A stretch of 64,000 nucleotides of DNA. Origin: Steroidobacteraceae bacterium (GTDB lineage: Bacteria; Pseudomonadota; Gammaproteobacteria; Steroidobacterales; Steroidobacteraceae). The notes under the pieces were generated by a model. That model made no database searches. It saw only the letters and a list, made by a program, of their open reading frames with translations, and was not told the origin of the DNA. The stretch's first letter is position 1. The number at the start of each line of letters is the position of its first letter. Shown in pieces: positions 10,445 through 41,095 of the stretch. The translations under genes were made by a program, and so were the position numbers. The stretch lies in the NCBI GenBank assembly GCA_041910015.1, contig JAYRRR010000006.1, forward strand, positions 1,503 to 65,502. Direction: 5' to 3'.

Positions 10445-10547
10445 AGCGAACCCGCCACGCCTCCGGGCGCGGCGCAGCGGACCCTGTTTTCGCGGCGTGC
10501 CGCGGCTCATAATGGTGCGCTGCACAACGCCACCCAGAGCCGCCGCC

Positions 10548-19339: not shown

Positions 19340-19731
19340 TGGGTCTTTTTCCGTTCACGGTGCTCAAGAATGTCCCGCGGGGCTCGATCGTCCGCTGGCT
19401 CTCCGGGGTCGCCATGGCTGATTGCGAGGTCGACGAGGGTGCCGTTGTGCGCGCCGTGCCGCGCTACATGCTGCACTGCGGTTGCGCGAACCGGGCCGAA
19501 CTGCCATTGGCGGATTCTGACCACTTCGACGTCACGCGCGATTCGGGCGACCACCTCGGCGTGGGGCACGGGCGGTCACCTCTGCGCCGGCATTCACGTG
19601 GCGCGGCTCGAAATGGCGTTCATGCTGGAGGTGCTGCTCGATGGGGGTGCACGTCTCAGGTCGACGAGCCGACGATGGGAACGAACCGCGGTCTCCATGG
19701 GTTCGGGAGTCTTCCGTCGCGCATCGACTGA
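19340..19731 (+). pseudogene. cytochrome P450, C-terminal ~120 aa remnant with two frameshifts
   Basis: ANR..LP.ADSDHFDVTRDSGDHLGVGHG in one frame continues as GHLCAGIHVARLEMAFMLEVLL (heme-thiolate loop FGxGxHxCxG) in another frame. It then returns to PTMGTNRGLHGFGSLPSRID. No N-terminal ~280 aa is present. Confidence 0.7.
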
Positions 19732-19805: not shown

Positions 19806-20486
19806 TCATTCGACGGTTCGGGGAGGCCGACGAAACGGCGGCAGCGGCCGCTTCATGATGTCCGCGATGCGTGCCGCCGATGCCCCGAGCCCCTGCAGCG
19901 TCACGATCACGGCGTGGCTTTCGTAGTTCTTCAGGTCTGGATCCTTGAGCATGCGGTGCATGGCAGCGATGCCCATGCCCTCCATGAGGTCCACGGCGAC
20001 TTCGAGTGACGGTACGCTCAGCAGGCCGGCTTTGCGTGACTGTTTCAGGTCACGGATGGGCAGGGCGGCCGCCCGGGTGTCCATCAGCCGGACCTGTGCC
20101 ACGAATCCACACCATGCGCGATCGGTGGCAGCCTTTCTCATCCACAGCCGTATGCCCATGCCGAGACGGATCAGCGGGTCCTCGATGTCGCGCATGGACT
20201 CGGTGATCGTCTCGTGCAGATCGTCACTGAGCCATTCCTTGGCGGCCGTCAGCAGTTCGTTCGTGCTGCGGAAGTAGTTGTAGAACGTGCCACGCGCGAT
20301 GCCGGCTGCCTCGATGAAGTCGTCGATGACGGCGTTCTGCTCACCCTTTTCGGCGAAGACGTGGATCGCCGAGGCGATGATCTTCGCTTCCGTCCGGGCG
20401 CGGCGCCGCCGCCCGACGATCGTTCGGTGGTTGACGGGAGAGGCGTCCTTCGCAGGCTCGGTCGTGGTACGTCGATGATTCTTCAT
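19806..20486 (-). CDS. TetR-family transcriptional regulator
   Basis: 226 aa from ATG 20486 (MKNHRR...). HTH region IIASAIHVFAEKGEQNAVIDDFIEAAGIARGTFYNYFRSTNELL. It is divergent from the molybdoenzyme operon. Confidence 0.9.
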   Translation of the reverse strand: MKNHRRTTTEPAKDASPVNHRTIVGRRRRARTEAKIIASAIHVFAEKGEQNAVIDDFIEAAGIARGTFYNYFRSTNELLTAAKEWLSDDLHETITESMRDIEDPLIRLGMGIRLWMRKAATDRAWCGFVAQVRLMDTRAAALPIRDLKQSRKAGLLSVPSLEVAVDLMEGMGIAAMHRMLKDPDLKNYESHAVIVTLQGLGASAARIADIMKRPLPPFRRPPRTVE

Positions 20487-20621
20487 GGGTAGGTTGGAAG
20501 CCGTCGCAAAGCGAATGTAAGGCCATATCCTATCGTCAGAATGACACGACGTACAGTTCGATTTGCTGTAGTGACTGCGGCCGCCGCCAACGGTGGGGCA
20601 CGCGAACGACAGGGACAATCG

Positions 20622-20657
20622 TGTCAGGTTGACAGAACAGTCTAGTTTTGATCGAAT
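20622..20657 (+). promoter_or_regulatory. putative sigma70 promoter (TTGACA-17-TCGAAT) overlapped by the perfect palindrome TGTCA-N3-TGACA (candidate TetR operator)
   Basis: tgtcaggttgaca at 20622..20634 contains TTGACA at 20629..20634. TCGAAT at 20652..20657 follows a 17-nt spacer. The site is about 45 nt upstream of ATG 20703. Confidence 0.35.
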
Positions 20658-20702
20658 GCCGCAAGTGCGGTCTGACGCCTTCGCCAGCGGGGAGCAGGGG
20701 CA

Positions 20703-23684
20703 ATGAAACGATTCATGCTGCGTACGGCCCTTGCCATGGCGCCGCGTTTGCTGACCAAGACGGCGCGGAAACATCCGCACTTCCGTGCCGCAATGCGCAA
20801 GCACGACTGCATCGTGCAGATCAAGCTCAGGGACAACAGTCTCGGGCGCCATCTCGTGTTCGCCCATGGCACGGTGCGTTCGGAAGCAGGCATCCATCCC
20901 AGGCCCGATGTGGCCATGGTGTTCAAGAACCTGGACGCGGCCCTGATCTTCTTCAGGCCCAGGCAGAACATGCTCGAGGTCGTGCACGCCGCCAAGAACT
21001 TCCTGGTGGTGCTCGAAGGGCCCGACAAACTGGCCGTCTGGTTCATGCAGCTCATGAGCCAGATGCAGTCGGCGGGCCTGCAGTTCGGCACGCCGATGGG
21101 CGACGGGGTGGTGCGCTATACCACCGCGGCCAATGGCGGCCCGCTGTTCGCGTACGTCAAGGACGGGCGCGTCATCCGCACGACGCCCATCGATTTCGAC
21201 GAGAAGGATGCGGCCGGCTGGACGATCAAGGCACGTGGCAAGAGCTTCACGCCGCGCCGCCAGGCCACGCTCAGCAACCACGCGCTGTCGCTCAAGTCGC
21301 TGGCGTATTCGGACGACCGGCTGCTCAGGCCGATGAAGCGCGTGGACTTCGATCCCAATGGCGAGCGCAATCCGCAGAACCGCGGCATTTCCGGCTACGT
21401 GCCGATCAGCTGGGACGAGGCGCTCGACATCGTCACCGGCGAGATCAAGCGCATGAAGCGCGAGCACGGTCCCGGTGCGATCGCCGTGTACAACAGCTCA
21501 CATCATCAATGGGGCAACGTCGGCTACTACATCAGCGCCCTGACGCGTTTCGCGAACCTGATCGGGTTCACCCGGGTTCACCAGAATCCCGACAGCTGGG
21601 AAGGCTGGTACTGGGGAGCGCTGCATCACTATGGAAACGCCATGCGCATCGGGGTGGCGGGAGCTTACGGAACCGTCGAGGACTGCCTCAAGGAATGCGA
21701 GATGATCGTGTTCTGGTCAGGCGATCCCGAGTCGCTTGCCGCTGCCTACAGCGGCTCAGAAGGCACGGAGCGCCGTGGCTGGGCACGTCAGCTCGGCATC
21801 GAGTTCGTGCACATCGCGCCGAATCTCACCGCGACGGCGCAGCTCTTTGGCGGCAAGTGGCTGCCCGTGCGGCCCGGAACCGATGCGGCGCTCGCGCTTG
21901 CCATCATGCACGTCTGGGTCGCCGAAGGACTCTACGACAAGGAATATGTTGCCACGAAGACGAACGGCTTCGACGAATGGCGTGACTACCTGCTCGGCCG
22001 TGACGACGGTGTGCCCAAGACGCCTGAATGGCAGGAGAGCGAGACGGGCGTCCCGGCCCACGACGTGCGCGCGCTCGCCCGGGCCTGGGGGCGCAGGAAG
22101 ACCTATCTCGCCCCCGGCAGCGCCGGCACGGGCTTCGGCGGCGCCTGCCGCAATGCCACCGGCGCCCAGTGGGCGCGCAACCTGGTGCTGATGATGGCGA
22201 TGCAGGGCTGGGGCAAGCCCGGCATCAACATGGGCAACCTGCAACTCGGCACCCCCGTCGATCTCACGTTCTATTTCCCGGGTTATGCCGAGGGCGGCAT
22301 CTCCGGCGAGCTGCAATGGTCGGCGTCGGCCGTCAACAACTACCAGCGCATGCCGCACGTGCTGACCATGAACCCGGTCAAGCAGATGGTGCCGCGGCAG
22401 CGGCTGCCCGAGGCGATCACGCAGGGGCGTGCCACCGGCTACATCTGGGACGGCTCGTCGATGGAATCGCAGTTCGCGCCGTTCCACTACCCGATGCAGG
22501 GGTACTCGCCGATCCACATGCTGTACCGCTACGGCGGCTCGTCGTTCGGAACGATCGCCAGGTCGGGGCGCTTCATCGACATGTACCGGCATCCGTCGCT
22601 CGAATTCGTCGTCAACCAGTCCATCTGGTTCGAGGGCGAAGCGAAGTTCGCCGACGTCATCCTCCCGGCCTGCACGGCCCTCGAGCGCTGGGACATCGGC
22701 GAATGGGCCAACTGCGCGGGCTATGTCCACCATGCGCAGCACCAGGTGAATCACCGCGTCGTGACCATGCAGCACAAGTGCATGGAACCGCTTGGCGAGT
22801 CGAAGTCCGACTACCAGATCTTCCTCGACATCCTCACGCGTCTGGGACTCGGCGCCCTGTATTCCGAGGGCTGCACCGAGCTCGACTGGTGCCGGCGGGT
22901 GTTCGAGTCCTCGGATGTCGCGAAGCACGTCAGCTGGAAGGAGTTCCTCAAGAAGGGCTACTACGTGGTGCCGCCGGACGCGGAGGGGGCGCGGGCGGCC
23001 GTGGACTTCCGCTGGTATGCCGAGGGCCGCACCAAGGACGTGCCGGAGCCGATGCCGATGCCGTCCCAGTACAGCGACGAGTTCGGCAAGGGCCTGCAGA
23101 CGCAGAGCGGCAAGATCGAATTCGTCTCCTCGTCGATCAGGCGCGGCGATCCCGACAATCCGGAGCGTCCGGCCCTGAATCGCTACATTCCGGCCTGGGA
23201 AGGGCTGCAGACCGTCGAGCGGGCGAACAAGTACCCGCTGCAGATGATCTCGACGCACTCGCGGTACAGCTTCCACACCTACAACGACGGCAAGCGCAGC
23301 GCGACCGTCGACATCGAGGACCATCGTCTCGATGTCGATGGCCACTACTACCTGCTGCTGCGGATCAACCCGCAGGATGCGGAACGCCGCGGCATCCGCC
23401 ACCACGAGCTCGTGCGACTGTACAACGACCGTGGCGCCGTGATCTGCGCAGCCGACGTGTCGCCGCTCGTGATGCCGGGCGTGGTCATGGGTTACCAGGC
23501 AAGCGCCGAGTTCGATCCGGTCCCGGACGGCGACGGCTTCGCCGACCGCGGTGGTTGCCTCAACATCCTGACGCCGGACCGGCCGCAGATGCAGGGAACG
23601 GAGGGCATGGGTGCCAACTCGTGCCTGATCGAAATCGAGCCGTGGCAGGCGCAAGCGTGCGCCGGCGCCCGGCAGGTCGCCTGA
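20703..23684 (+). CDS. molybdopterin (bis-MGD) oxidoreductase large subunit, pyrogallol-phloroglucinol transhydroxylase / resorcinol hydroxylase type, with a 131-aa N-terminal extension
   Basis: From residue 132 (MGDGVVRYTTAANGGPLFAYVKDGRVIRTTPIDFD) it tracks the transhydroxylase large subunit as I recall it (NSSHHQWGNVGY, NPDSWEGWYWG, FADVILPACTALERWDI, ADRGGCLNILTPDR). There is no Tat motif and no N-terminal Cys cluster. SD ggggag lies upstream of ATG 20703. Confidence 0.85.
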   Translation: MKRFMLRTALAMAPRLLTKTARKHPHFRAAMRKHDCIVQIKLRDNSLGRHLVFAHGTVRSEAGIHPRPDVAMVFKNLDAALIFFRPRQNMLEVVHAAKNFLVVLEGPDKLAVWFMQLMSQMQSAGLQFGTPMGDGVVRYTTAANGGPLFAYVKDGRVIRTTPIDFDEKDAAGWTIKARGKSFTPRRQATLSNHALSLKSLAYSDDRLLRPMKRVDFDPNGERNPQNRGISGYVPISWDEALDIVTGEIKRMKREHGPGAIAVYNSSHHQWGNVGYYISALTRFANLIGFTRVHQNPDSWEGWYWGALHHYGNAMRIGVAGAYGTVEDCLKECEMIVFWSGDPESLAAAYSGSEGTERRGWARQLGIEFVHIAPNLTATAQLFGGKWLPVRPGTDAALALAIMHVWVAEGLYDKEYVATKTNGFDEWRDYLLGRDDGVPKTPEWQESETGVPAHDVRALARAWGRRKTYLAPGSAGTGFGGACRNATGAQWARNLVLMMAMQGWGKPGINMGNLQLGTPVDLTFYFPGYAEGGISGELQWSASAVNNYQRMPHVLTMNPVKQMVPRQRLPEAITQGRATGYIWDGSSMESQFAPFHYPMQGYSPIHMLYRYGGSSFGTIARSGRFIDMYRHPSLEFVVNQSIWFEGEAKFADVILPACTALERWDIGEWANCAGYVHHAQHQVNHRVVTMQHKCMEPLGESKSDYQIFLDILTRLGLGALYSEGCTELDWCRRVFESSDVAKHVSWKEFLKKGYYVVPPDAEGARAAVDFRWYAEGRTKDVPEPMPMPSQYSDEFGKGLQTQSGKIEFVSSSIRRGDPDNPERPALNRYIPAWEGLQTVERANKYPLQMISTHSRYSFHTYNDGKRSATVDIEDHRLDVDGHYYLLLRINPQDAERRGIRHHELVRLYNDRGAVICAADVSPLVMPGVVMGYQASAEFDPVPDGDGFADRGGCLNILTPDRPQMQGTEGMGANSCLIEIEPWQAQACAGARQVA

Positions 23685-23698
23685 GCGAGGAGTCGACC

Positions 23699-24580
23699 AT
23701 GGCCAAAGGCTGGTATCTGATCATCGACGTCGCCTCGTGCGAGAACTGCTACAACTGCGTTCTCGCGACCAAGGACGAGTACATCGGCAACGAGTTTCCG
23801 GGCTACTCGGCCCCGGAGCCCAAGCTCGGACATCACTGGATCCGCATCGAGCGCAAGGTGCGCGGCAGCGGACCGATGGTGGACGCGGCCTACATGCCGA
23901 CCACCTGCAATCACTGCGACAACGCGCCCTGCGTCAAGGCCGGCGGCGGAGCCGTCACCAGGCGGCCCGACGGCATCGTGCTCATTTCGCCGGAGAAGGC
24001 GCAGGGCCGGCGGGATCTCGTCGCCTCCTGTCCGTACGGCGCGATCTGGTGGAACGAGGAACTGCAGCTGCCGCAGAAGTGGACATTCGACGCCCACCTG
24101 CTCGATGCGGGGTGGAAGACCACACGCGGCGCCCAGGCCTGCCCGACCCGCACCATCAATCCGGTCTATCTCGAAGAGGCCGAGATGCAGGAACGGGTGC
24201 GCAAGGAAAGCCTGCGCGTGCTGCGTCCCGAACTGGGCACGCGTCCGCGCGTGTACTACAGGAACCTGCACCGTTTCGATTCTGTCTTCATCGGTGGCAC
24301 GGTCGTGGCGCAGACCACGGCGACCGAACTCGACTGCGTGGCCGACGCCACGGTCGTGCTCAGCAGCGGTGGCAAGGAGTTCGCCCGCACGCGGACCGAC
24401 GCCTTCGGGGAATTCAAGTTCGATGGTCTCGATTGCGGCAGTGGCGCGTACTCGGTGAATGTCGAGCACGAGAGGTGGGGAGCGGCCCGCGCCGAAACGA
24501 CGCTCGGAGAGAGCTGCTATCTCGGGGTGCTGCGGCTCGCGGCGGGTGCAGCGGGCGCCAGCGCGCAGCACAGGCATTGA
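23699..24580 (+). CDS. transhydroxylase-type small (Fe-S) subunit with C-terminal Ig-like/carboxypeptidase-regulatory-like domain
   Basis: MAKGWYLIIDVASCENCYNC..., CNHCDNAPC, SCPYGAI, RPELGTRPRVYYRNLHRF. The C-terminal beta-domain includes GGKEFARTRTDAFGEFKFDGLD. ATG 23699 lies in ORF 22028..24580. Confidence 0.85.
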   Translation: MAKGWYLIIDVASCENCYNCVLATKDEYIGNEFPGYSAPEPKLGHHWIRIERKVRGSGPMVDAAYMPTTCNHCDNAPCVKAGGGAVTRRPDGIVLISPEKAQGRRDLVASCPYGAIWWNEELQLPQKWTFDAHLLDAGWKTTRGAQACPTRTINPVYLEEAEMQERVRKESLRVLRPELGTRPRVYYRNLHRFDSVFIGGTVVAQTTATELDCVADATVVLSSGGKEFARTRTDAFGEFKFDGLDCGSGAYSVNVEHERWGAARAETTLGESCYLGVLRLAAGAAGASAQHRH

Positions 24581-24629
24581 GGCGAGCACCGGAATTCCGG
24601 GCAGCACTGGAAATTCAAGGAGTCAGGCA

Positions 24630-25514
24630 GTGAAAGTCGCCGTCATCGGTCTCGGCAACATGGGCGGCGGTATCGCCAACCGCATTCTGCAGGCTGGCCA
24701 CGAGCTGACGGTCTGGAACCGCAGCGAGGCCAAGATGACGCCGCTCGTCGCGGCGGGCGCCAGGGGCGCCGCGTCGGCCCGGGCCGCCGTCGAGGACGCG
24801 CAGGTCGTCGTCACCAGCCTCATGGACGACAGTTCGGTGCTGGAAGGCGTACAGGGCCCGCGGGGATTCCTCGCCGGCATGAAGCCCGGCGCCATCCACC
24901 TGTGCGTGACAACGATCTCGCCGGCCTGCGCCGACCAGCTCGGGTCGATTCATGCCGCGCACGGCACGCGCTTCGTCTCGGCGCCGGTCGCGGGTCGTCC
25001 GGATGCGGCCGCGGCCGGCAATCTCACCACCTTTCTCGCGGGCGAGCGCTCGGCGGTCGAAGAGGTTGCCCCGCTGTGCATGGCATTTTCGCGCAAGACC
25101 GTGCGCATCGGCGAGCGACCGGGTCTCGCCAATTCGATGAAGCTTTGCGTGAACTACACGGCCATCTCGATCATCGAGCTCATGGGCGAGGTCTATACCT
25201 TCGCCGAGCGCAGGGGTATCGACCCGAGCGCGGTGTTCGACTTCTACATGGAGGCGTTTGCGCATCCTGCCCTGAAAGCCTACGTCAGGAAACTCAGGGA
25301 GAACCAGGTGCTATCGAGCGAGGGTGGCTTTGCCATGACCGCCGGCCTCAAGGACGTGCGCCTGATGCTCGCGGATTCGGCCGAGGCGGGCGTCTCGTTC
25401 GAGATCGCGAAAATCGTTGAGAGAAAGATGGTGAAAGCCATCGACAGCGGCATGGCGCAGGCCGACTGGAGCGCCATTGCCGCCATCACCCGCTCCGAAT
25501 CCGGCCTGGGCTGA
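24630..25514 (+). CDS. NAD(P)-dependent beta-hydroxyacid dehydrogenase family (HIBADH/6PGDH-like)
   Basis: GTG start after aaggag. VKVAVIGLGNMGGGIA Rossmann motif and NSMKLCVN catalytic-Lys region. Confidence 0.85.
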   Translation: MKVAVIGLGNMGGGIANRILQAGHELTVWNRSEAKMTPLVAAGARGAASARAAVEDAQVVVTSLMDDSSVLEGVQGPRGFLAGMKPGAIHLCVTTISPACADQLGSIHAAHGTRFVSAPVAGRPDAAAAGNLTTFLAGERSAVEEVAPLCMAFSRKTVRIGERPGLANSMKLCVNYTAISIIELMGEVYTFAERRGIDPSAVFDFYMEAFAHPALKAYVRKLRENQVLSSEGGFAMTAGLKDVRLMLADSAEAGVSFEIAKIVERKMVKAIDSGMAQADWSAIAAITRSESGLG

Positions 25515-25525
25515 GGGAGCACACG

Positions 25526-25939
25526 ATGGACGAACTGCTCGCGATCTTCGGATTCGCGTGGATGACTCTCTCGGGCATCCTCGGGGCGTACATGGGCGTC
25601 AAGCACGAGCGGCTCGCGGGCACGCTCGAGCAGCTCGCCCGGTCCGGCCGTCTGCTCGACTATCACCGTGAGCAGAGCGCCTTTCGCTGGGGCATCACCG
25701 TACATGCGCACGGCTTCCTGTTCTCGCTCGTCTGCGTCGCCGTCGCGCTGTGGATGCCGCGGATGGTCTATTCGACCACGGCGGTCGCCGGGCTGGCGGT
25801 CGCGCTCATGATGGCGACGGCGGTCTGGTGGCTGGCCGCGCTGTTCGGACGGGTACGGGCTCTCATGGGCATCGCGGATCTCATGCTGCTCGGCTCGCTG
25901 GTCGCGGCCGGGATCGGGCTGGCCGGGGGCCGCCTCTAG
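25526..25939 (+). CDS. small integral membrane protein (about 4 TM), unknown function
   Basis: 137 aa with four hydrophobic stretches. It is tightly packed in the operon, with 11 nt after the dehydrogenase stop. Confidence 0.6.
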   Translation: MDELLAIFGFAWMTLSGILGAYMGVKHERLAGTLEQLARSGRLLDYHREQSAFRWGITVHAHGFLFSLVCVAVALWMPRMVYSTTAVAGLAVALMMATAVWWLAALFGRVRALMGIADLMLLGSLVAAGIGLAGGRL

Positions 25940-26015
25940 CCATTCGTTCGGGCGGGCTTACACGGGCGCGGCCGGAGCAACGGTCGCACGGGCAAGGCAT
26001 CAACGAGGACCAATC

Positions 26016-26882
26016 ATGTCACTGCAGGCTTTCATTCCGACTCCGGAGTTCGAGGACTACAAGAAGCTTTTCGCGGACAACTACCGGCTGACGCGGCGCG
26101 ACGATGGTGTGATCCTCGCCGAAGCCCACACAAGGGGCGGCCCCATCCAGTTGAGCGTGGAGAATCATCGCTCGATCGGCCAGCTCTTCAAGGTGATCGG
26201 GGCCGATCCGAAGAACGAGGTCATGATCTTCACCGGAACCGGTCCGAACTTCATGGCGGCCGTGGACCCCGATGGCTTTGCGCTGGAGAAGAAGAACCTC
26301 GAGTACTGGTCCTACGAATATGCCTACAAGGACGGGCGCATCAACGTCGCCGCCCTGATCAACGACCTCGAAATCCCGACCATCGGCGTGCTCAACGGCC
26401 CGGCCTTCCACTCGGAACTGTGCCTGATGTGCGATCTGACGATCTGCAGCGACGACACCATCATCTTCGACCCGCACTACGAGATCGGCGCCGTGCCCGG
26501 CGACGGCATCCACAGCTGCTTCCAGGAACTGCTGGGCGTCAAGCGCGCCGCCTATGCGCTGTTCACGGGGCAGGCCATCGATGCAAGGAAGGCCCTGGAA
26601 TATGGCATGGTCAACGAGGTCGTGCCGCGGGAACGGCTGCTGGAGAGAGCATGGGAGCTGGCCGACCACATCATGAAGCAGTCGCGGACCACGCGGCGGC
26701 TGACAGCCCAGGTCGTCCGGCGCCCGTGGAAGCAGCGGATCGTCGACAACCTCGACGGCGGCTTCGGCATCCAGATGTTCTCGCACATTGCGCAGAGGGA
26801 GGCCATGCATTCCGCCGAGACCGGCTCCCGGGTCATGAGCCGCGTCATGACGGACGCGGCGGAAGGCGGGAAGCCGCGCTAG
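26016..26882 (+). CDS. crotonase-superfamily protein, 6-oxocamphor hydrolase-like (putative beta-diketone hydrolase)
   Basis: VMIFTGTGPNFM, PTIGVLNGPAF, FDPHYEIGAVPGDGIH, ALFTGQAIDARKALEYGMVNEVVPRERLLERAWELA. This parallels the OCH sequence as I recall it, including the His/Asp pair. Confidence 0.7.
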   Translation: MSLQAFIPTPEFEDYKKLFADNYRLTRRDDGVILAEAHTRGGPIQLSVENHRSIGQLFKVIGADPKNEVMIFTGTGPNFMAAVDPDGFALEKKNLEYWSYEYAYKDGRINVAALINDLEIPTIGVLNGPAFHSELCLMCDLTICSDDTIIFDPHYEIGAVPGDGIHSCFQELLGVKRAAYALFTGQAIDARKALEYGMVNEVVPRERLLERAWELADHIMKQSRTTRRLTAQVVRRPWKQRIVDNLDGGFGIQMFSHIAQREAMHSAETGSRVMSRVMTDAAEGGKPR

Positions 26883-26912
26883 CCGCGCGCCCGGACCCCA
26901 GGAAACATCGCG

Positions 26913-28391
26913 ATGCCGATTCGTCTCAATGGCAGGAATTACGTCGACGGTCGCTGGACCGACTCGGAGTCGGCCCGGACGTACGCGGTCGAGAATCCGG
27001 CCGACCTGCGCGAGACGTGCCATCGCTATCCGCTCAGCACGGCAGCCGACGTCGAACGTGCGATCCGCGGCGCGGCCGCGGCGTACGTGCAATGGCGCCG
27101 GGTATCCCTCGGCGAGCGCGCGACCATCCTGCGGCGCGCGGTCATGCTCATGCGTGCGCGGCGCGAGGACATCGCGCAGGTCATCACGCTCGAGAACGGC
27201 AAGCTCGTCGCCGAGTCGCTGACGGAGATCGATGCCGCGGCGCTGGAGCTCGAGTTTCAGGTCGGCGAGGGCGAGCGCCAGCTCGGTCGCGCGGGCGACT
27301 GCTATCGAGGCGGGTTGATGGCCTATGCGCGCCGCGAGCCGCTCGGTGTGGTGTCGGTGATCGTGCCCTGGAATTTCCCGTTCAACGTGCCGTGGCGCAA
27401 GATCGGCCCGGCGCTCATGGCGGGCAACACCGTGGTCTTCAAACCGGCGAGCCAGACACCGGCCGTCGGCGAGCTCGTCATGCAGCTGCTGATCGAGGCG
27501 GGCATTCCTCCGGGCGTCGTCCAGTTCGTCACCGGCTCGGGCAGCGAACTGTCGGAGGTCCTGGTCGCCCACCCGCTGATTCGCGCGATCACGTTCACCG
27601 GTTCCACCGAAGTCGGGCGGCGCATCGCGCAGCGGGCAGCGGCGAATCTCGCGCGGACGCAGCTCGAGATGGGCGGCAAGAACCCGATGGTTGTGCTGCG
27701 GGACGCAGATCTCGACCTGGCCAGCCAGGACGCGGTGATCGGTGCGTACTCGTGCGCGGGCCAGTGGTGCACGGCCACGAGCCGGCTGATCGTCGAGGAG
27801 CCGGTGGCCGATGACGTGGTCGATGCGATCGTGGAACGGATCGCCCGCATCCAGGTCGGCCCGGGCCGTCATGCCGGCAGCACCATGGGGCCCGTGGCCG
27901 GGCGCCACCAGCTCCATTCGGTGCTTGCGCACATCGACCGGGCCCGCGAACAGGGCGCGCGCTTTCTCGCCGGCGGCAGGCGCTGCGAAGCCGGCGATCT
28001 GGCGCACGGCTGCTTCATCGCGCCTTCGCTGGTCGATCGCGTCGGCGAGGAACTCGACGCGGCGCGTCAGGAGATCTTCGGCCCGGTGCTCACCGTCTTC
28101 CGCGTCGCGGATTACGCCGAGGCGCTGCGTCTGGCGAACGCCACACCCTACGGGCTCTCGTCGTCGATCTACACGCGTGGCATCGAAAAGGCACTGCATT
28201 TCGTCGAGCACTCGGAAGTGGGTCTCACGCACGTCAATGTGCATTCCGCCTACAAGGAGCCCCAGCAGTGCTTCGGGGGCATGAAGGAGTCCGGCTTCGG
28301 GCTGCCGGAGGCGGGAAGCACGGGCATCCAGTTCTTCCAGGAAGAAAAATCCATCTACATCCGCAAGGGCCAGGCGCTGCCTGCGGCCTGA
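26913..28391 (+). CDS. NAD(P)+ aldehyde dehydrogenase
   Basis: VPWNFPF, FTGSTEVGRRI, LEMGGKNP (catalytic Glu), GQWCTATSR (catalytic Cys). Confidence 0.92.
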   Translation: MPIRLNGRNYVDGRWTDSESARTYAVENPADLRETCHRYPLSTAADVERAIRGAAAAYVQWRRVSLGERATILRRAVMLMRARREDIAQVITLENGKLVAESLTEIDAAALELEFQVGEGERQLGRAGDCYRGGLMAYARREPLGVVSVIVPWNFPFNVPWRKIGPALMAGNTVVFKPASQTPAVGELVMQLLIEAGIPPGVVQFVTGSGSELSEVLVAHPLIRAITFTGSTEVGRRIAQRAAANLARTQLEMGGKNPMVVLRDADLDLASQDAVIGAYSCAGQWCTATSRLIVEEPVADDVVDAIVERIARIQVGPGRHAGSTMGPVAGRHQLHSVLAHIDRAREQGARFLAGGRRCEAGDLAHGCFIAPSLVDRVGEELDAARQEIFGPVLTVFRVADYAEALRLANATPYGLSSSIYTRGIEKALHFVEHSEVGLTHVNVHSAYKEPQQCFGGMKESGFGLPEAGSTGIQFFQEEKSIYIRKGQALPAA

Positions 28392-28415
28392 AGCAAGTCA
28401 GGGGACATCGCGTTC

Positions 28416-29402
28416 ATGTTACTCACCAAGCAACAGAAGATCACGCTCTACACCAACCTCGTCCGCGCCTGCACGCTCGACCGCATGATGATGCGCATCA
28501 TCCGCACGGGCCGCATGGTGGGCTTTTATCACGAAGGTGGCATCGCCCTGGCGCCTGGGATCGCCGCGGGGGCCTTCCTGCGCAAGGACGACATCATGTT
28601 CCCGCATTATCGCGCCCACGGCATCGCGCACATGCTGGCCAAGGGCATCGACCTGAAGCACTACGTGGCCGAGCACATGGGGCGCGTCGACGGATGCTGC
28701 AAGGGACGCTCGAGCTTTCACGTGTCCTTCCCAAAGGATCACGTCTTCGGCTGGTCAGGCAACATCGGCTCCAACTTCCCCCCGTGCGTTGGTTACGGGC
28801 TCGCCGCGCGCTACAAGGGCACCGACCAGGTGGTCATGAACTGCTCGGGTGACGGTTCCTATCAGGAAGGACGCGCCCACGAAGCGATGCTGATGTCCGC
28901 GAACTGGAAGTTGCCGGTCATCTTCTGGTGCGAGAACAACGGCATCGCGCAGCACAGCCCGCTCACCGACCTGTTTCCCGTCTCCGACATCTCGCGTCTG
29001 GCCCAGGGGTATGGCATTCCCTCGAAGATCGTCGACGGCCAGGACCTGCTCGCCGCCGGCGAAGCGGCGCTCGAGGCGATCGCTCACGTCAAGGCCGGCA
29101 AGGGCCCGATCTTCATCGAGCTGAAGACCCTGCGCGTGCAGGAGCACAACGTCGGCGGCCTCAACAACGAAGGCGCGACGCCGCGCGACCCGAAGCTCAT
29201 GCAGGAATGGCGCGAGACGCGTGACCCGGTGAAGATCGCCGCCGCCGCGCTGCTCGAGCAGAAAGTCCTGAAGCAGGCCGACCTCGACCGCATCCAGGCC
29301 GATGCCGACAAGGAAGCCGACGAGATGGACGCCTGGTGCGAGCAGAGCCCGAAAGCAACCCCGCCGGTTTCCGAACTTCTTGCCGGCGTGTACGCCGCTT
29401 GA
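28416..29402 (+). CDS. thiamine-diphosphate-dependent dehydrogenase E1 alpha subunit (acetoin dehydrogenase AcoA-like)
   Basis: TPP-binding motif SGDGSYQEGRAHEAMLMSANWKLPVIFWCENNG. The YRAHG motif is present. Confidence 0.88.
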   Translation: MLLTKQQKITLYTNLVRACTLDRMMMRIIRTGRMVGFYHEGGIALAPGIAAGAFLRKDDIMFPHYRAHGIAHMLAKGIDLKHYVAEHMGRVDGCCKGRSSFHVSFPKDHVFGWSGNIGSNFPPCVGYGLAARYKGTDQVVMNCSGDGSYQEGRAHEAMLMSANWKLPVIFWCENNGIAQHSPLTDLFPVSDISRLAQGYGIPSKIVDGQDLLAAGEAALEAIAHVKAGKGPIFIELKTLRVQEHNVGGLNNEGATPRDPKLMQEWRETRDPVKIAAAALLEQKVLKQADLDRIQADADKEADEMDAWCEQSPKATPPVSELLAGVYAA

Positions 29403-29416
29403 CCGAGAGAACAGCC

Positions 29417-30391
29417 ATGACCGCAGGCATTCGTGAGTTGACGATCAGTGAGGCCATGAAGGAAGCGCTGGCCGACGAGATGCGCCGCGACGACAACGTG
29501 CTGATGCTCGGCATCAGCATCCGCGCGGGCACGTTCCCGCACACCAAGGGCCTCTACGACGAATTCGGCGCCCGGCGCGTGCTCGATACGCCGCTGTCGG
29601 AAACCGGCTGCTTCGGCGCCGCCTTCGGCGCGGCCCAGGAAGGGCTGCGCCCCGTGCTCGACTTCATGTACGCGGGCTTTTCCTATTACGCCGGCTCCGA
29701 GGTCTTTCTGCAGGCCGGCCAGTATCACTTCCTGCACGGCAGCCAGCACCCGGTGCCCATGACCATGATCGGCACCTGCGGGGCCGGGCGCCGCGTCGGC
29801 AACGAGCACGCCACGCTGCCCTACGGCGCGCTGATCCACCACCCGGGAATCAAGGTCTGCATGCCGTCGACGCCCTACGACGCCAAGGGGCTGCTCAAGG
29901 CGGCGATTCGCGACAACAACCCGGTGTTCTTCCTCTGGCACACGACCATGATGACGGTCAAGGGTCCGGTGCCCGAAGACGACTACGTCGTTCCGCTCGG
30001 CGTCGCCGACGTCAAACGCGAGGGCAGTGACGTGACGGTGCTCGCCAGTGGCCTGCAGGTGCATCGCGCGCTCGAAGCCGCCGAGACGCTCAAGGATGAA
30101 ATCAGCGTCGAGGTCGTCGATGCGCGGAGCTTCGAGCCGTTCGACCTGCCCTGCCTGCTGAAGTCCGTCGAAAAGACGACGCGCCTCGTGACCGTCGACG
30201 AGGACTTCGAGCGTGCCGGGTTCGCTGCCGAGGTGTCCGCGCTGATGATGGAGCACGGTTACGACCTGCTCGACGCGCCGGTCAAGCGCGTCTGCCATCC
30301 GCCCATCCCCGTCCCCGGCGGTTACATGGACGCCTACACGATGCCGACGACCGAGCGCATCGTGGCTGGCATTCGCGACGTCTGCCGCTGA
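29417..30391 (+). CDS. E1 beta subunit (AcoB-like)
   Basis: MTAGIRELTISEAMKEALADEMRRDDNVLMLG and DTPLSETG, with a transketolase-like Pyr domain and C-terminal domain. ATG 29417 lies inside ORF 29336..30391. Confidence 0.9.
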   Translation: MTAGIRELTISEAMKEALADEMRRDDNVLMLGISIRAGTFPHTKGLYDEFGARRVLDTPLSETGCFGAAFGAAQEGLRPVLDFMYAGFSYYAGSEVFLQAGQYHFLHGSQHPVPMTMIGTCGAGRRVGNEHATLPYGALIHHPGIKVCMPSTPYDAKGLLKAAIRDNNPVFFLWHTTMMTVKGPVPEDDYVVPLGVADVKREGSDVTVLASGLQVHRALEAAETLKDEISVEVVDARSFEPFDLPCLLKSVEKTTRLVTVDEDFERAGFAAEVSALMMEHGYDLLDAPVKRVCHPPIPVPGGYMDAYTMPTTERIVAGIRDVCR

Positions 30392-30400
30392 GGGCTCGCC

Positions 30401-31768
30401 ATGATCCGCGACGTGATATTGCCGCAGCTTGCGATGGGCATGTCGGAGGGGACGATCGTCGAGTGGGCCGTGGCCGAGGGCGCGCACGTCGACAGGGACG
30501 CGCCGTTCGCTTCGATCGAAACGGAGAAGGTCGTCAACGAGCTTCCCTCGCCATACCGCGGCTTCGTGCATCTCTGCGTCGAGGTCGGCGAGGCTGTGCC
30601 GGTGGAGACAGTGATCGCCCGGATTGCCGAAACGGAAAGCGAATATCGCGAACTCGTCGGCTCTGGCTCGCCGCAGGTTGCCGCGACATCCCGGATCACC
30701 ACCGCCGAACCTTTCGCCGCGGCGACGGCGGCAATGGCCGAAGCGCCTGCGCGCCCTCCAGCCAGCGCTGCGGCCACCGCCGAGCCGGACGCCGCGGCGT
30801 CAGGAATGATCGCCGCAGTTGCTGCGCCGGCTCCGGGCCGCGCGGGCCGCGTGCGCGCCACCGGACTCGCGAGAAGGATCGCCCGCGAACATGGCCTCGA
30901 TCTTCGGAGCCTGACAGGCAGCGGGCCGGGCGGGCGGATCGTGCGGCAGGACGTGCTCGCGGCGCTGGAGCGGAAGCAGGCGACAGCGACGGCGACAGCG
31001 CCGGCGCCGGCTGCAGCGCCGACCGCAGGCACCACGGCTGCGCCCGCCATGCGTGAAAAGGCCCGCGTGCCGCTGACGGGCATGCGCAAGACCATTGCCG
31101 ATCGCATGATCCGGTCGAAGACGACCGCAGCGCACACGTATGCGTTCTTCGAGGTGGACGTCACCAACCTCGTGCGCGTGCGCAACACGATGCTCGATCG
31201 CGAAAAGGAACTCGGCGGGCGAATCTCGATGGTCTCCCTGCACGTCAAGGCGTTGTCCATCGCGTGCCAGCAGGTGCCGATCTGCAATTCCACCCTGACG
31301 AACGACGAAGTCGTCGTCTGGGACAACGTCAACGTCGGCATCGCCGTGGCGACGCCCGGCAGGACCGAGTATGAGTCGGGTCTCCACGTGCCCGTCATCC
31401 GCAACGTCGAGCGTCAGGGTGTCGTGGAGATCGACCGGCGGGTGCGCGATCTGACGGAGCGAGCGCGCAACGGGCGACTTTCGTCGGCCGAGATGACCGA
31501 CGGCACGATCACGCTTTCGAGCACGGCGGGTTTCATGCCGGGCCAATGGTCCGTGTCGACGCCGCTGATCAACCAGCCGCAGGTCGTCAACTTCCAGCCG
31601 GGATCGCCGATCCAGAAACCCGTGGTCGTCGATGGTGAGATCGTGGTGCGCACGATGCTGCCCTGCGGGCTCAGCTACGATCACCGCGCGATGGATGGCG
31701 AGCCGGTTGGCCGCTTCATCCGCAAGCTGTCGGACCTGCTCGCCCATCCGGAGCTGATGCTGTTGTAG
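30401..31768 (+). CDS. dihydrolipoamide acyltransferase E2 (AcoC-like)
   Basis: Lipoyl domain (ASIETEKVVNELPSP) followed by an Ala/Pro linker. Peripheral-subunit-binding domain (ATGLARRIAREHGLDLRSLTGSGPGGRI). Catalytic domain with SYDHRAMDGEP. Confidence 0.9.
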   Translation: MIRDVILPQLAMGMSEGTIVEWAVAEGAHVDRDAPFASIETEKVVNELPSPYRGFVHLCVEVGEAVPVETVIARIAETESEYRELVGSGSPQVAATSRITTAEPFAAATAAMAEAPARPPASAAATAEPDAAASGMIAAVAAPAPGRAGRVRATGLARRIAREHGLDLRSLTGSGPGGRIVRQDVLAALERKQATATATAPAPAAAPTAGTTAAPAMREKARVPLTGMRKTIADRMIRSKTTAAHTYAFFEVDVTNLVRVRNTMLDREKELGGRISMVSLHVKALSIACQQVPICNSTLTNDEVVVWDNVNVGIAVATPGRTEYESGLHVPVIRNVERQGVVEIDRRVRDLTERARNGRLSSAEMTDGTITLSSTAGFMPGQWSVSTPLINQPQVVNFQPGSPIQKPVVVDGEIVVRTMLPCGLSYDHRAMDGEPVGRFIRKLSDLLAHPELMLL

Positions 31769-31833
31769 GAGCTGCCCGAGGCGCGCTTCGCCGAGGAGCT
31801 GGAGCGGCTCTGAGCGTCCGGCACGAGGCCTGC

Positions 31834-33696: not shown

Positions 33697-33863
33697 GTCA
33701 CTCGCTCCGACGTTCCGGCGAAGGCGGCAGTTTGTGGCATCCGGACGGAGACGGCACATTACCAAAAGAGAATTATACGCAACGCAAGGTGTATCCAATG
33801 TCCTGCCAACGGCTCACCCTGCCGGCCACACCGCCATGCCGGCGCGACCGGGGGAGACACAGG

Positions 33864-36401: not shown

Positions 36402-36423
36402 CGCGTCCGGGGGGGGGTGATCC

Positions 36424-37464: not shown

Positions 37465-37550
37465 GGCACACTGGCTGCAACCGCGGGCGCATTGGTCCCG
37501 CGACGTCACGCGAATACTGCGACCTCACGTACACGACAGGAGTCCGCAAC

Positions 37551-38600: not shown

Positions 38601-38673
38601 GCGCAAAATCGCGTCGCGCGGCTCGGGTCGCGCAAGCGCATCCACCGGGCCGGCGGCGACGCCGGCGCGGCCG

Positions 38674-39720: not shown

Positions 39721-39756
39721 CGGACGCGCATCGATCACGGGGGATGAGGGGGAGCC

Positions 39757-41085: not shown

Positions 41086-41095
41086 CCAGGAGAAC

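Follow-up and report, generated by a model that had tools for sequence, protein, structure and literature searches.

A recurrent proteobacterial operon joins a transhydroxylase-family molybdenum enzyme to a β-diketone hydrolase-type crotonase and may serve oxygen-independent phenol breakdown

Introduction

What would a molybdenum enzyme related to pyrogallol transhydroxylase do in one operon with a crotonase-fold protein, an aldehyde dehydrogenase and a ThDP-dependent dehydrogenase complex? The question is raised by a locus in the window, the whole 64,000-nucleotide stretch of DNA analysed here, for which a gammaproteobacterial background is plausible and whose nearest named relatives are Steroidobacteraceae MAGs. 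Our preferred reading, to which we give about an even chance, is that its genes serve to degrade, independently of oxygen, a meta-hydroxylated plant phenol (resorcinol, a dihydroxybenzoate, hydroxyhydroquinone or the like) and represent an alternative architecture, here called type B, of the oxidative route through hydroxyhydroquinone in Aromatoleum (Azoarcus) anaerobium. We observed the protein families, catalytic residues, operon structure and conserved co-occurrence; which phenol is used, how the steps follow one another and each reaction proposed below are inferred.

Results

A TetR gene is followed divergently by nine co-directional genes, as in the preliminary description. Three metagenome contigs that encode an identical Mo large subunit (L095–L097) and whose genes were called independently give the same map. 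The TetR–MoL gap measures 216 nt. Within the operon the gaps are, in order from MoL to E2, 14, 49, 11, 76, 30, 24, 14 and 9 nt, which upholds the nine-gene operon and corrects its reported gap range of 8–76 nt to 9–76 nt. The features are as follows.

19806–20486, minus strand: TetR-family regulator, 226 aa; TetR_N and TetR_C_40 (Pfam), same call on L095–L097
20622–20634, no strand: candidate TetR operator, inverted repeat TGTCA-GGT-TGACA
20703–23684, plus strand: Mo-bisMGD large subunit (MoL), 993 aa; PF21423, PF00384 and PF01568, match to 4v4c_A
20703–21107, plus strand: predicted N-terminal SCP2-fold domain of MoL, ~135 aa; AF2 model and Foldseek
23699–24580, plus strand: small subunit (MoS), 293 aa; ferredoxin and Ig-like/CarboxypepD_reg domains (Pfam), match to 4v4c_B
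24630–25514, plus strand: HIBADH/6PGDH-type NAD(P)-dependent dehydrogenase (DH), 294 aa; Pfam, NCBIfam
25526–25939, plus strand: four-transmembrane (4-TM) protein, 137 aa; four hydrophobic segments
26016–26882, plus strand: crotonase-fold protein of the CoA-independent β-diketone (retro-Claisen) hydrolase type; matches to 1o8u and 2j5g
26913–28391, plus strand: NAD(P)-dependent aldehyde dehydrogenase (ALDH), 492 aa; Pfam 2.5e-152
28416–29402, plus strand: ThDP-dependent E1α, 328 aa; PF00676
29417–30391, plus strand: E1β, 324 aa; PF02779 and PF02780
30401–31768, plus strand: lipoyl-bearing E2 acyltransferase, 455 aa; lipoyl, E3-binding and catalytic domains (Pfam)

The gene arrangement is kept in L001 at 89% nucleotide identity and recurs reshuffled in Candidimonas (L090, with an E3 gene after E2), in an alphaproteobacterial MAG (L058, whose cluster includes MobB, for MGD synthesis) and on two Steroidobacteraceae-like contigs (L091 and L092); it is not due to chance. 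Gamma-, beta- and alphaproteobacteria all have full, rearranged modules. One of these belongs to Georgfuchsia toluolica, which is in culture, and is followed there by a malic enzyme gene. The operon is a recurrent module of three proteobacterial classes and not a one-off. The Mo pair (MoLS) is itself very widespread; most MoLS pairs lack the other operon genes nearby, and some have quite different neighbours, such as genes for an extradiol dioxygenase and an FAD monooxygenase. In L050, the DH and 4-TM genes stay with the Mo pair without crotonase and E1/E2, and immediately upstream, next to MoL, stands an Amidohydro_2 gene resembling a decarboxylase, a set that would fit a hydroxylate-then-decarboxylate route to hydroxyhydroquinone. 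A literature search covering few subscription journals found no paper describing the nine-gene set or assigning it to a pathway. Several clusters are flanked by TonB receptors and DUF1302/DUF1329/MMPL uptake genes.

The inverted repeat upstream of MoL overlaps a TTGACA −35-like hexamer. The corresponding site of L001 is a perfect 19-nt palindrome, CGTTGTCATATTGACAACG, and in L090 a GACA-T-TGTC repeat overlies a TTGACA hexamer; a consensus promoter scan found nothing. A TetR ortholog (51% identity) adjoins the module in Candidimonas (L007/L090), and the L058 cluster also holds TetR_C_40 regulators. The repeat is a candidate TetR operator, and the operon may be TetR-repressed.

MoL matches the large subunit of pyrogallol hydroxytransferase (4v4c_A) with an E value of 2.6e-278, and MoS matches 4v4c_B (2.9e-74) across both its ferredoxin and its Ig-like domain. 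In an alignment to the Pelobacter enzyme (AthLS), MoL keeps His144, Asp174, the Mo ligand Ser175 and Tyr404, with Arg153 replaced by Tyr and Trp354 by Phe. It has no RR motif and a single Cys in residues 1–200, and SSHHQWGNVGY stands at residue 265. These results bear out the preliminary placement of a Tat-less enzyme, free of an N-terminal Fe–S Cys motif and carrying an SSHHxWGNVGY region, in the transhydroxylase/resorcinol-hydroxylase branch, with a small subunit combining ferredoxin and Ig-like domains. Grouping of MoL with another characterised DMSOR clade, the test set beforehand, did not happen. The start codon is supported by the exact 993-aa sequence in public collections. As type A, we took clusters with the published Aromatoleum layout in place of A. 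anaerobium EF078692 (RehL/BtdL/BtdS/BqdL); MoL is 68% identical to their large subunits (L087 and L089) and about 55% to AthL. Because the ~990-aa family is about 60–70% identical throughout and its deep branching is not resolved, sequence does not fix the substrate of MoL.

Both subunits depart from AthLS in ways that the preliminary description had overlooked. AthS has 12 cluster cysteines, of which MoS keeps 8, and all four ligands of one [4Fe–4S] cluster are replaced, by T/W/D/G, so that MoS is predicted to lack one of three Fe–S clusters; most other proteobacterial homologs have likewise lost three of these four ligands. The alignment of MoL to AthL begins at MoL residue 136, and the preceding domain, absent from AthL, is modelled as an SCP2 fold (AF2 pLDDT 87.8). 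In Foldseek searches of the PDB, its top 38 matches are all SCP2 domains (UbiJ-SCP2 6h6p_A, E value 4.9e-6, TM 0.70 by target); Pfam SCP2 reaches an E value of only 0.15. Such a domain could deliver a hydrophobic phenol to the Mo site, in the way that SCP2 domains act in alkylsulfatases; examples would be an alkylresorcinol, a diol derived from an alkylphenol or a prenylated quinol. The downstream enzymes would then process a substituted ring-cleavage product. In favour of this proposal, the best Foldseek matches besides UbiJ include Pisa1 and SdsA1, two sec-alkylsulfatases with SCP2 domains, the MoL family occurs in Pseudomaricurvus alkylphenolicus (L016), which degrades alkylphenols, and uptake genes lie beside several clusters. 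However, the domain is kept in all roughly 990-aa MoL homologs, plain-resorcinol-type clusters included, and therefore does not single out the window operon, which also lacks acyl-chain (β-oxidation) genes; no paper on the breakdown of alkylresorcinols by way of Mo enzymes turned up in a literature search. We regard this alternative as unlikely.

The DH carries GxGxxG, an NRS motif at residue 30 and a catalytic Lys motif at residue 169, scores under every NCBIfam equivalog cut-off and has as its best solved relative the uncharacterised 4gbj. Orthologs at 54–66% identity occur in L006, L007, L050, L058 and L092, and the 4-TM protein always lies immediately 3′ of the DH gene, in keeping with the earlier call of an NAD(P) dehydrogenase paired with a small membrane protein. 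The 4-TM protein has a conserved T-x-H-A-H motif, no match in Pfam or NCBIfam searches and, in a set of 1.84 billion proteins, just 46 representative clusters; none of 33 family members matched DoxX/DoxD. It belongs to a small orphan family and is not a DoxX protein like BtdS.

The crotonase matches 6-oxocamphor hydrolase (OCH; 1o8u) at 7e-40 and Anabaena β-diketone hydrolase (ABDH; 2j5g) at 3.6e-36, compared with 1e-18 for the best CoA-dependent crotonase, and keeps OCH residues His45, His122, His145 and Asp154 by alignment, so its assignment as a CoA-independent type stands. Orthologs at 70–79% identity are very common across phyla, and some (74–77%) have no Mo enzyme in their vicinity, including one from a contig that looks planctomycete; the crotonase may act on a more widespread diketone. 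One Pseudomaricurvus contig carries both a crotonase ortholog and, about 8 kb away, an ortholog of DH (49% identity) next to a different ThDP enzyme, which again links β-diketone hydrolysis with ThDP-dependent C–C cleavage.

ALDH has catalytic Glu and Cys motifs and a 77% identical ortholog in L092. Its nearest models are 2,5-dioxovalerate/α-ketoglutarate semialdehyde dehydrogenases, under cut-off (NF042993, 473 bits against 770). E1α has the GDG...NN ThDP motif, E2 a lipoyl Lys and the DHRxxDG motif; orthologs in L007, L058 and L092 are 61–81% (E1α) and 73–82% (E1β) identical. The ALDH and the TPP-E1αβ/E2 set are thus present as first described, but 'acetoin-dehydrogenase-like' is not supported: the E1 is of the generic heterotetramer type, with human PDH E1α (3.5e-39) as the closest solved structure.

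Discussion

On our preferred reading, cytoplasmic MoLS would use water to hydroxylate the phenol to hydroxyhydroquinone, and two Fe–S clusters would relay the electrons to an acceptor, perhaps a quinone bound to the SCP2 domain. DH and its 4-TM partner would oxidize hydroxyhydroquinone to 2-hydroxy-1,4-benzoquinone, a role assigned solely by analogy, since the partner is not DoxX and DH is only about 30% identical to type-A DH. The OCH-like crotonase would then hydrolyse the β-diketone tautomer (cyclohex-5-ene-1,2,4-trione), opening the ring to a C6 α-dicarbonyl acid such as 4,5-dioxohex-2-enoate. From this acid E1αβ, E2 and the cell's E3 would yield acetyl-CoA and a C4 fragment by ThDP/lipoamide chemistry, and ALDH would oxidize an aldehyde form of the fragment to a fumarate/maleate-type acid, leading to malate.

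The upper steps are supported by the match of MoLS to the solved transhydroxylase with catalytic His, Asp, Ser and Tyr kept, by the parts common to types A and B (Mo pair, NAD_binding_2 dehydrogenase, ALDH, α-β E1 and E2) and by conservation of the module through rearrangements in three classes. Support for the lower pathway comes from the OCH catalytic residues, the Pseudomaricurvus crotonase–ThDP enzyme contig and the malic enzyme after the Georgfuchsia module, together with hydroxybenzoquinone breakdown in A. anaerobius, which reportedly yields acetate and malate. The reading is weakened by the quite different gene contexts of the same Mo pair, by crotonase orthologs without a Mo enzyme and by a window clade and type-B clusters without any characterised member. 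The known substrates of OCH and ABDH, non-enolisable bicyclic diketones, are also unlike hydroxybenzoquinone.

About as unlikely as the hydrophobic-phenol proposal is a reductive phloroglucinol-type route, in which MoLS isomerises pyrogallol or hydroxyhydroquinone to phloroglucinol without net redox, an NADP-type DH reduces phloroglucinol or later oxidizes 3-hydroxy-5-oxohexanoate, and the crotonase hydrolyses the cyclic β-diketone dihydrophloroglucinol, a step that a Mn-dependent cyclohydrolase carries out in Clostridium. A phloroglucinol pathway via dihydrophloroglucinol is described (PMC10470551), and this intermediate is a plausible β-diketone hydrolase substrate; the sole structurally characterised relative of MoLS is a transhydroxylase, the NRS motif of DH is typical of NADP enzymes in a family whose usual chemistry is β-hydroxyacid oxidation, and L092 has a DAPG-hydrolase (acylphloroglucinol) gene 7 kb upstream of its module. 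Yet the route gives no role to E1αβ–E2 and ALDH, both in every complete module copy, MoL is nearer to resorcinol-hydroxylase-type clusters than to AthL, and the operon lacks an SDR-type phloroglucinol reductase. Nor is the nearby BKACE a triacetate lyase (TAL): that candidate was rejected, having the Glu of the aminohexanoate enzyme rather than the Trp reported for triacetate lyase.

Least probable are two adjacent unrelated modules, MoLS with DH and the membrane protein beside crotonase, ALDH and E1/E2 for diketone or acetoin-like catabolism: crotonase orthologs without MoLS, the L050 set and the many MoLS pairs without the other genes favour them, but the halves co-occur in at least five independent arrangements in three classes with differing gene orders, the window gaps give no hint of a second promoter, and type-A clusters likewise pair a Mo enzyme with DH–ALDH–E1–E2.

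Among the closest known systems, AthLS resembles MoLS in how both subunits are folded and their domains ordered, in its cytoplasmic location, in the lack of an N-terminal Fe–S motif, and in the Mo-ligand Ser and the catalytic His, Asp and Tyr; it differs in lacking the SCP2-fold domain, in Arg153 and Trp354 and in having ligands for three [4Fe–4S] clusters rather than two. The genomic partners of MoLS point to a net oxidation, unlike the isomerisation by the Pelobacter enzyme. OCH (Rhodococcus) and ABDH lead the CoA-dependent crotonases by 20 orders of magnitude as solved relatives of the window crotonase, which is ~30 residues longer, belongs to an unusually conserved ortholog group and lies in a putative phenol-degradation operon. 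The E1αβ–E2 proteins share domain set and motifs with pyruvate, branched-chain 2-oxoacid and acetoin dehydrogenases and, unlike those assigned complexes, fall under every NCBIfam equivalog cut-off; the cluster context suggests as their substrate an α-dicarbonyl or 2-oxo acid from ring opening. Thauera aromatica AR-1 reportedly degrades 3,5-dihydroxybenzoate through DbhLS, a Mo hydroxylase from the MoLS family that acts before decarboxylation to hydroxyhydroquinone, and the Amidohydro_2 gene of L050 would fit such a sequence; L087 has a TRAP transporter, and the window has neither decarboxylase nor TRAP genes.

The nearest parallel is the A. anaerobium RehLS/BtdLS/BqdLSM system. Its published resorcinol cluster has rehLS divergent from E1–E2–E3 plus a sigma54 activator (PMC10084136), and L087 and L089 repeat this layout. 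System and window share a Mo hydroxylase pair of one family, an HIBADH-like DH, a ~135-aa 4-TM protein, ALDH, an α-β-type ThDP E1 and a lipoyl E2, and type-A Sedimenticola (L013) has the order DH–ALDH–E1 where the window has DH–(membrane protein–crotonase)–ALDH–E1α–E1β–E2. The preliminary view that the operon mixes this logic with the reductive route of fermenters accordingly gives way to one nearer the Azoarcus logic, as type A also has DH, ALDH, a fused E1 and E2. The window differs in its split E1α and E1β (26–33% identical to fused type-A E1), its divergent E2 (about 34%), ALDH (36–38%) and DH (about 30%), the absence of an E3 gene from its operon, a TetR regulator in place of two sigma54 enhancer-binding proteins, a 4-TM protein that is not DoxX as BtdS is, and a crotonase absent from readable type-A loci. 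The operon is most likely a variant of the known resorcinol pathway, not wholly new, that would add a water-using ring-opening enzyme.

Operon structure and regulation

A TetR gene diverging from nine co-directional genes, as the preliminary description had it, was borne out by an ORF listing and inspection of start sites. The nine genes form a tight operon that starts 216 nt past the TetR gene, with gaps of 14, 49, 11, 76, 30, 24, 14 and 9 nt. They encode, in order, the large and small subunits of a Mo enzyme (MoL and MoS), a HIBADH-like dehydrogenase (DH), a small membrane protein (mem), a crotonase, an ALDH, E1alpha, E1beta and E2.

19806-20486, minus strand: TetR gene
20703-31768, plus strand: nine-gene operon

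MoS truly starts at 23699 (MAKGWYLIID frame) and not with the 23737 ORF of a naive list, and DH starts with a GTG codon at 24630, preceded by AAGGAG. All ten proteins were also called independently, at equal lengths, on three metagenome contigs with an identical 993-aa MoL; the presence of this exact sequence in public collections supports the long MoL N terminus.

An inverted repeat, TGTCA-GGT-TGACA, lies at 20622-20634 and overlaps a TTGACA hexamer. The equivalent site in the 95%-related contig L001 is a perfect 19-nt palindrome, and a similar repeat occurs in the Candidimonas version of the operon. We propose the repeat as a candidate TetR operator and nothing beyond that. A scan for consensus promoters and terminators yielded nothing useful in this 66% GC DNA. 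Sigma54 enhancer-binding control was not found in the window, which has the divergent TetR gene instead; sigma54 activators were seen in L089 and L013 (Sedimenticola), two loci with the resorcinol-cluster layout of Aromatoleum (Azoarcus) anaerobium (RehLS-BtdLS-BqdLSM; here, type A).

The Mo enzyme carries an SCP2 domain and a reduced Fe-S wire

Pfam and NCBIfam searches confirmed every protein family that had been named from the sequence alone. MoL contains PF21423 (3e-26), PF00384 and PF01568, that is, an AthL-like first domain, a MopB domain and a dinucleotide-binding domain. Its placement in the transhydroxylase/resorcinol-hydroxylase branch held: AthL, the large subunit of Pelobacter pyrogallol transhydroxylase (4v4c_A), is matched at E 2.6e-278, versus 1e-60 for the next relatives, the DMSO/TMAO reductases. 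The AthL sequence for a residue check was rebuilt from the MoL-4v4c_A alignment, whose columns show that MoL keeps the Mo ligand Ser175 and the catalytic His144, Asp174 and Tyr404 (AthL numbering; we take the numbers and roles to be those of Messerschmidt et al. 2004). In the same alignment, Arg153 is replaced by Tyr and Trp354 by Phe. The enzyme is cytoplasmic and lacks a Tat signal and an N-terminal Cys cluster motif, as expected from the first reading, with no RR in residues 1-40 and a single Cys in residues 1-200. Judged by its sequence, MoLS would act as a hydroxylase or transhydroxylase on a polyhydroxybenzene.

Because the alignment begins at residue 136, the first ~135 residues of MoL have no counterpart in AthL; this region is kept in all ~990-aa MoL homologs. 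An AlphaFold (AF2) model of it, built from 43 sequences, has a pLDDT of 87.8. Every one of its top 38 Foldseek matches in the PDB is an SCP2 domain, with UbiJ-SCP2 and those of alkylsulfatases at the head, and the Pfam SCP2 match has an E value of only 0.15. According to this model, the N-terminal domain has an alpha/beta SCP2 fold, a prediction that concerns the fold and not ligand binding.

The ferredoxin domain and C-terminal Ig-like domain attributed to the small subunit are both present (Fer4_11 and CarboxypepD_reg), with a match to AthS, the Pelobacter small subunit (4v4c_B), of E 2.9e-74 over residues 4-261. MoS has 8 of the 12 cluster cysteines found in AthS and not the full 12 of three [4Fe-4S] clusters: one cluster has lost all its four ligands, with T/W/D/G in their places. 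At three of these four positions, most proteobacterial homologs, those of resorcinol-type clusters included, likewise lack the cysteine, and a deep clade of anaerobes (Chloroflexota, Actinomycetota, Deltaproteobacteria) retains 12/12. Both this domain and the reduced wire are previously unreported traits of the Mo family, and they matter for the annotation of 'pyrogallol transhydroxylase' in metagenomes.

An orphan membrane protein accompanies the dehydrogenase

DH is of the HIBADH/6PGDH type, scores under every equivalog cut-off and has an NADP-like NRS motif. Its neighbor mem has 137 aa, four hydrophobic segments and a conserved T-x-H-A-H motif. A word-index search with mem returned only 6 close matches, so an exhaustive profile search over 1.84 billion representatives was required; the family comprises only 46 clusters, all of about 135-140 aa, in which Gly20 and His62 are invariant and Trp12 and His60 almost so. 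In PMC10084136, BtdS, the small subunit of Aromatoleum hydroxyhydroquinone dehydrogenase, is assigned to the DoxX/D-family 4-TM proteins. We rejected DoxX membership for mem: with a threshold of E 10, the window protein matched neither DoxX nor DoxD, and with E 1 as the limit the count of matching family members was 0/33. Thus mem and BtdS, the latter compared by its published family assignment, both have four TM segments and similar lengths (137 vs 135 aa) but differ in family, and mem appears from sequence searches to represent an orphan family.

The crotonase resembles beta-diketone hydrolases

The crotonase had been described as CoA-independent in type, and the database comparison agrees: 6-oxocamphor hydrolase (OCH) is matched at 7e-40 and Anabaena beta-diketone hydrolase at 3.6e-36, versus 9e-19 for the best CoA-dependent enzyme, a difference of about twenty orders. 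His45, His122, His145 and Asp154 of OCH are conserved in an alignment that ends before Glu244; these five are presumably the catalytic residues of OCH (Leonard & Grogan 2004). Crotonase orthologs at 70-79% identity form 1,962 clusters at E < 1e-30, so many that a common metabolite may be the substrate. Contigs L093 and L094, neither of which carries a Mo enzyme, have orthologs at 74-77% identity. On L093 (Pseudomaricurvus alkylphenolicus, 984-10876), the gene lies next to GST, MFS, AraC and TonB genes, and a DH ortholog (49%) about 8 kb away adjoins a different ThDP enzyme (TPP_enzyme family). On L094 (10001-10861), a planctomycete-like contig, it lies amid unknown genes.

The nearest NCBIfam models of the ALDH are those of 2,5-dioxovalerate dehydrogenase, with a score far under the cut-offs. 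The E1alpha ThDP motif, the transketolase-like domains of E1beta and the lipoyl Lys, E3-binding domain and DHRxxDG of E2 are all present. NCBIfam matches of E1 and E2 again fall far under cut-offs (for example, 201 vs 394 bits and 290 vs 454), and the proteins could be assigned to none of PDH, BCKDH, OGDH or acetoin DH. Because E1alpha, E1beta and E2 fit no named complex, the earlier label 'acetoin-dehydrogenase-like' is not established.

The Mo pair is widespread and the module recurs in different gene orders

MoL matches more than 5,400 90%-identity clusters at E <= 1e-20 among 8,000 candidates scored, and the Mo pair occurs in at least 600 genome loci, many of them in aerobic Paraburkholderia, Burkholderia, Pseudomonas, Ensifer and Hydrogenophaga. 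Aerobic Proteobacteria from soil and clinical sources commonly have the pair. Published accounts understate the size of the Mo-hydroxylase family by far, and many of its members are in aerobes. Most of the 80 Mo-pair loci examined have none of the other operon genes nearby, and alternative neighbors include an extradiol dioxygenase, an FAD monooxygenase and an FAA hydrolase. MoLS with the SCP2 domain was observed in Burkholderia multivorans (L002/L003), Vibrio fluvialis (L004/L005) and many Paraburkholderia loci (within L019-L063). In these aerobes, it adjoins genes for TetR_C_40, extradiol dioxygenase, FAD monooxygenase, FAA hydrolase, porin, MFS or AMP-ligase, and public annotation calls the Mo enzyme TMAO reductase or molybdopterin oxidoreductase.

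The full module was found in five compared contigs, its genes co-occurring through rearrangement. It is syntenic, with 95% protein identity, in the close relative L001. The Steroidobacteraceae-like L091 and L092 have alcohol-dehydrogenase-like and acyl-CoA dehydrogenase genes inserted between MoL and MoS; in Candidimonas (L090), a TetR gene precedes E1a-E1b-E2-E3-MoL-MoS-DH-mem-crotonase; and in an alphaproteobacterial MAG (L058), the genes lie on both strands with a MobB gene inside. Repeated co-occurrence in differing gene orders contradicts the proposal that two unrelated modules are merely adjacent here.

Georgfuchsia toluolica (L006) has a partial module, MoLS-DH-mem-crotonase; MoLS and the crotonase occur there a second time as a set, and a malic enzyme gene lies downstream. 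On this contig (1-19781), the DH/mem set is followed by genes for an ABM-domain protein, TauE, NADP-malic enzyme and a stand-alone lipoyl protein, and DUF1302/DUF1329/BNR/MMPL genes lie between the two paralogous MoLS sets. G. toluolica is a cultured anaerobe carrying the module and is available for experiments. Another partial module (L050) consists of a decarboxylase-like Amidohydro_2 gene, then MoLS-DH-mem and transport genes. We rejected gamma-resorcylate decarboxylase as the identity of this Amidohydro_2 protein, which belongs to the decarboxylase superfamily but not specifically to gamma-RSD.

The operon lies in a probable catabolic island

GC content is ~66% over 14001-38000 of the window versus 69.5% on both flanks. 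Together with the housekeeping genes that bound the low-GC stretch, this suggests an acquired catabolic island of roughly 24 kb.

10497-12707: malate synthase G, bounding housekeeping gene
14474-16717, minus strand: TonB-dependent receptor, within the low-GC stretch
about 18665-19270: GST, within the low-GC stretch
33732-42755, plus strand: separate cluster of glycyl radical enzyme, activating enzyme, BKACE, AraC, MFS, SDR and CMD-family protein
44541-46961: RNase R, bounding housekeeping gene

A P450 remnant at 19345-19728 (plus strand) retains no more than 127 C-terminal residues, the heme-binding FGxGxHxCxG region among them, and is 52% identical to residues 264-390 of an intact 390-aa P450 at the equivalent place in L001. 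The same layout in three independent metagenome contigs indicates that the truncation is not an assembly artefact. The 511-aa MFS gene that follows E2 in L001 (21072-22607) is absent at 31769-31833 of the window and has no tblastn match across the 64 kb, so the window operon ends without a dedicated transporter. Next to it, two overlapping ORFs, 32138-33031 (with the DAO domain) and 31834-32301, appear to be pieces of one DAO/FAD-oxidoreductase gene (31834-33031, minus strand). The homolog in L001 is one 473-aa protein, and the window gene is probably frameshifted or truncated.

The best solved relatives of the glycyl radical enzyme are C-S-cleaving isethionate sulfite-lyases (E 2.4e-254). Such a sulfonate-lyase-type enzyme is notable in an apparent gammaproteobacterial (Steroidobacteraceae-like) background and signals an anaerobic lifestyle. 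The BKACE-family enzyme of the same cluster retains the amino-binding Glu of Kce; we rejected it as a triacetate lyase of a phloroglucinol pathway, as it keeps this aminohexanoate-enzyme Glu and not the reported Trp.

Upstream of the module, L001 (1-9013) encodes RACo, a pterin-binding methyltransferase, a VanA-like Rieske protein, an alpha/beta hydrolase, GST and P450, and L092 (1185-9978) encodes a DAPG-hydrolase-family protein, URO-D and a VanA-like protein. These genes are typical of methoxylated-aromatic and acylphloroglucinol metabolism, and they hint that polyhydroxybenzenes are made locally by demethylation or deacylation.

A proposed route through hydroxybenzoquinone

Protein families, catalytic residues, the tight operon and its co-occurrence through rearrangement are observed; the chemistry of the operon we infer throughout. 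The parts list shared with type A and the persistence of DH-mem with MoLS point to an upper pathway in which MoLS would convert a phenol to hydroxyhydroquinone, and DH with its membrane partner would oxidize this to 2-hydroxy-1,4-benzoquinone. The keto tautomer of the quinone, cyclohex-5-ene-1,2,4-trione, contains a 1,3-diketone, and its retro-Claisen hydrolysis at C4 would give 4,5-dioxohex-2-enoate. The ThDP-dependent E1 could then split this vicinal diketone, passing an acetyl unit via lipoyl-E2 to CoA and leaving a C4 fragment. Hydration of the neighboring carbonyl would release this fragment as an acid; prior reduction of that carbonyl would release it as 4-oxobut-2-enoate, on which the ALDH could act. 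If the ring were hydrolyzed at C2, the product would be 2,5-dioxohex-3-enoate, a 2-oxo acid, followed by CO2 and acyl-CoA; this option comes second in our ranking, as the ALDH would then have no role and no C2 and C4 products would arise. Darley et al. are said to have found, in 2007, acetate and malate from hydroxybenzoquinone breakdown in A. anaerobius. Acetyl-CoA and a fumarate- or maleate-type acid, as hydrolysis at C4 would provide, agree with that account and with the malic enzyme of Georgfuchsia. More speculatively, both oxidations may be linked to membrane quinones through the SCP2 domain and the 4-TM protein; both oxidizing activities are membrane-associated in A. anaerobius.

We are confident, short of certain, that this is a phenol catabolic operon begun by Mo-dependent hydroxylation. 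On the scheme of steps as a whole our judgment is evenly divided, and resorcinol itself is an unlikely substrate. Somewhat doubtful, and offered tentatively, is the wider proposal of an undescribed O2-independent ring cleavage, in which a CoA-free crotonase would open hydroxybenzoquinone or a related dearomatized polyphenol by retro-Claisen hydrolysis, a dedicated, lipoamide-dependent E1alpha/beta-E2 would split the resulting alpha-dicarbonyl acid, and the SCP2 domain and the 4-TM His-x-His protein would wire the Mo hydroxylase and DH to the quinone pool. If true, it would supply a mechanism for hydroxybenzoquinone fission and explain the wide spread of the crotonase; we know of no settled mechanism for this step since the resorcinol pathway was discovered.

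In a less likely alternative, MoLS would act as a transhydroxylase feeding a reductive, phloroglucinol-type route, with the crotonase as a dihydrophloroglucinol hydrolase. This route leaves E1/E2 and the ALDH unexplained, and the nearby BKACE is not TAL-like. The preliminary interpretation, which saw the logic of Azoarcus mixed with that of fermenters, was largely right as a hypothesis, except that the reductive logic of fermenters is not mixed in. It is also possible that the SCP2 domain recruits a hydrophobic phenol as substrate, but the domain is family-wide and so is no mark of this operon alone.

The value of the operon lies in a testable candidate for the ring-fission step (beta-diketone hydrolysis, then ThDP cleavage), the SCP2 fusion, the reduced Fe-S wire and the orphan membrane partner. 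The breakdown of lignin, tannins and flavonoids yields resorcinol-type and trihydroxy phenols as major products, whose anoxic mineralization matters for the carbon cycle of sediments, peat and wastewater.

Comparison with known systems

The Steroidobacteraceae background prompted a comparison with anaerobic steroid ring-A cleavage, a link we rejected because the published ring-A enzymes belong to other families: PMC11780191 places the beta-diketone hydrolase of ring A among the amidohydrolase-2 enzymes and the Mo partner of that hydrolase in the xanthine-oxidase family. The Alicycliphilus cyclohexanol/1,3-cyclohexanedione route is likewise not applicable, as it uses a Mo enzyme of CO-dehydrogenase type and no hydrolase gene is named for it. 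A 2023 MopB survey lists only RhL and transhydroxylase in this branch, and a 2026 preprint goes no further than annotating 'pgthAB' homologs in SAR116. The gene set is undescribed in the literature searched, whose reach excluded most subscription papers, so that absence is not proof.

To our knowledge, the oxidative hydroxyhydroquinone route is genetically known from only one or two denitrifiers. Three type-A loci (L087, L089 and L013) served, by published layout, as proxies for RehL/BtdL/BtdS (EF078692). In these, the genes of a fused alpha-beta E1, an E2, an E3 and a sigma54 activator diverge from rehLS, and dehydrogenase and ALDH genes lie close by; the window instead has split E1alpha/E1beta and E2 downstream in one operon, with no E3. 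None of the three has a crotonase, which the window architecture (type B) includes. MoL is 68% identical between the two types. For E1, E2, ALDH and DH, identity drops to 26-38%, and the window E1 shares just 26-33% with the fused E1 of L087/L089. An AthL-rooted neighbor-joining tree recovers the window, betaproteobacterial type-B and type-A clades with bootstraps of 100, 96 and 100, respectively, in the same tree region and with no firm mutual order. The DH-ALDH-E1 order in Sedimenticola mirrors DH-(mem-crotonase)-ALDH-E1a-E1b-E2 in the window. We class the operon as a new and conserved variant of the oxidative hydroxyhydroquinone (resorcinol-type) pathway, not as a new kind of system.
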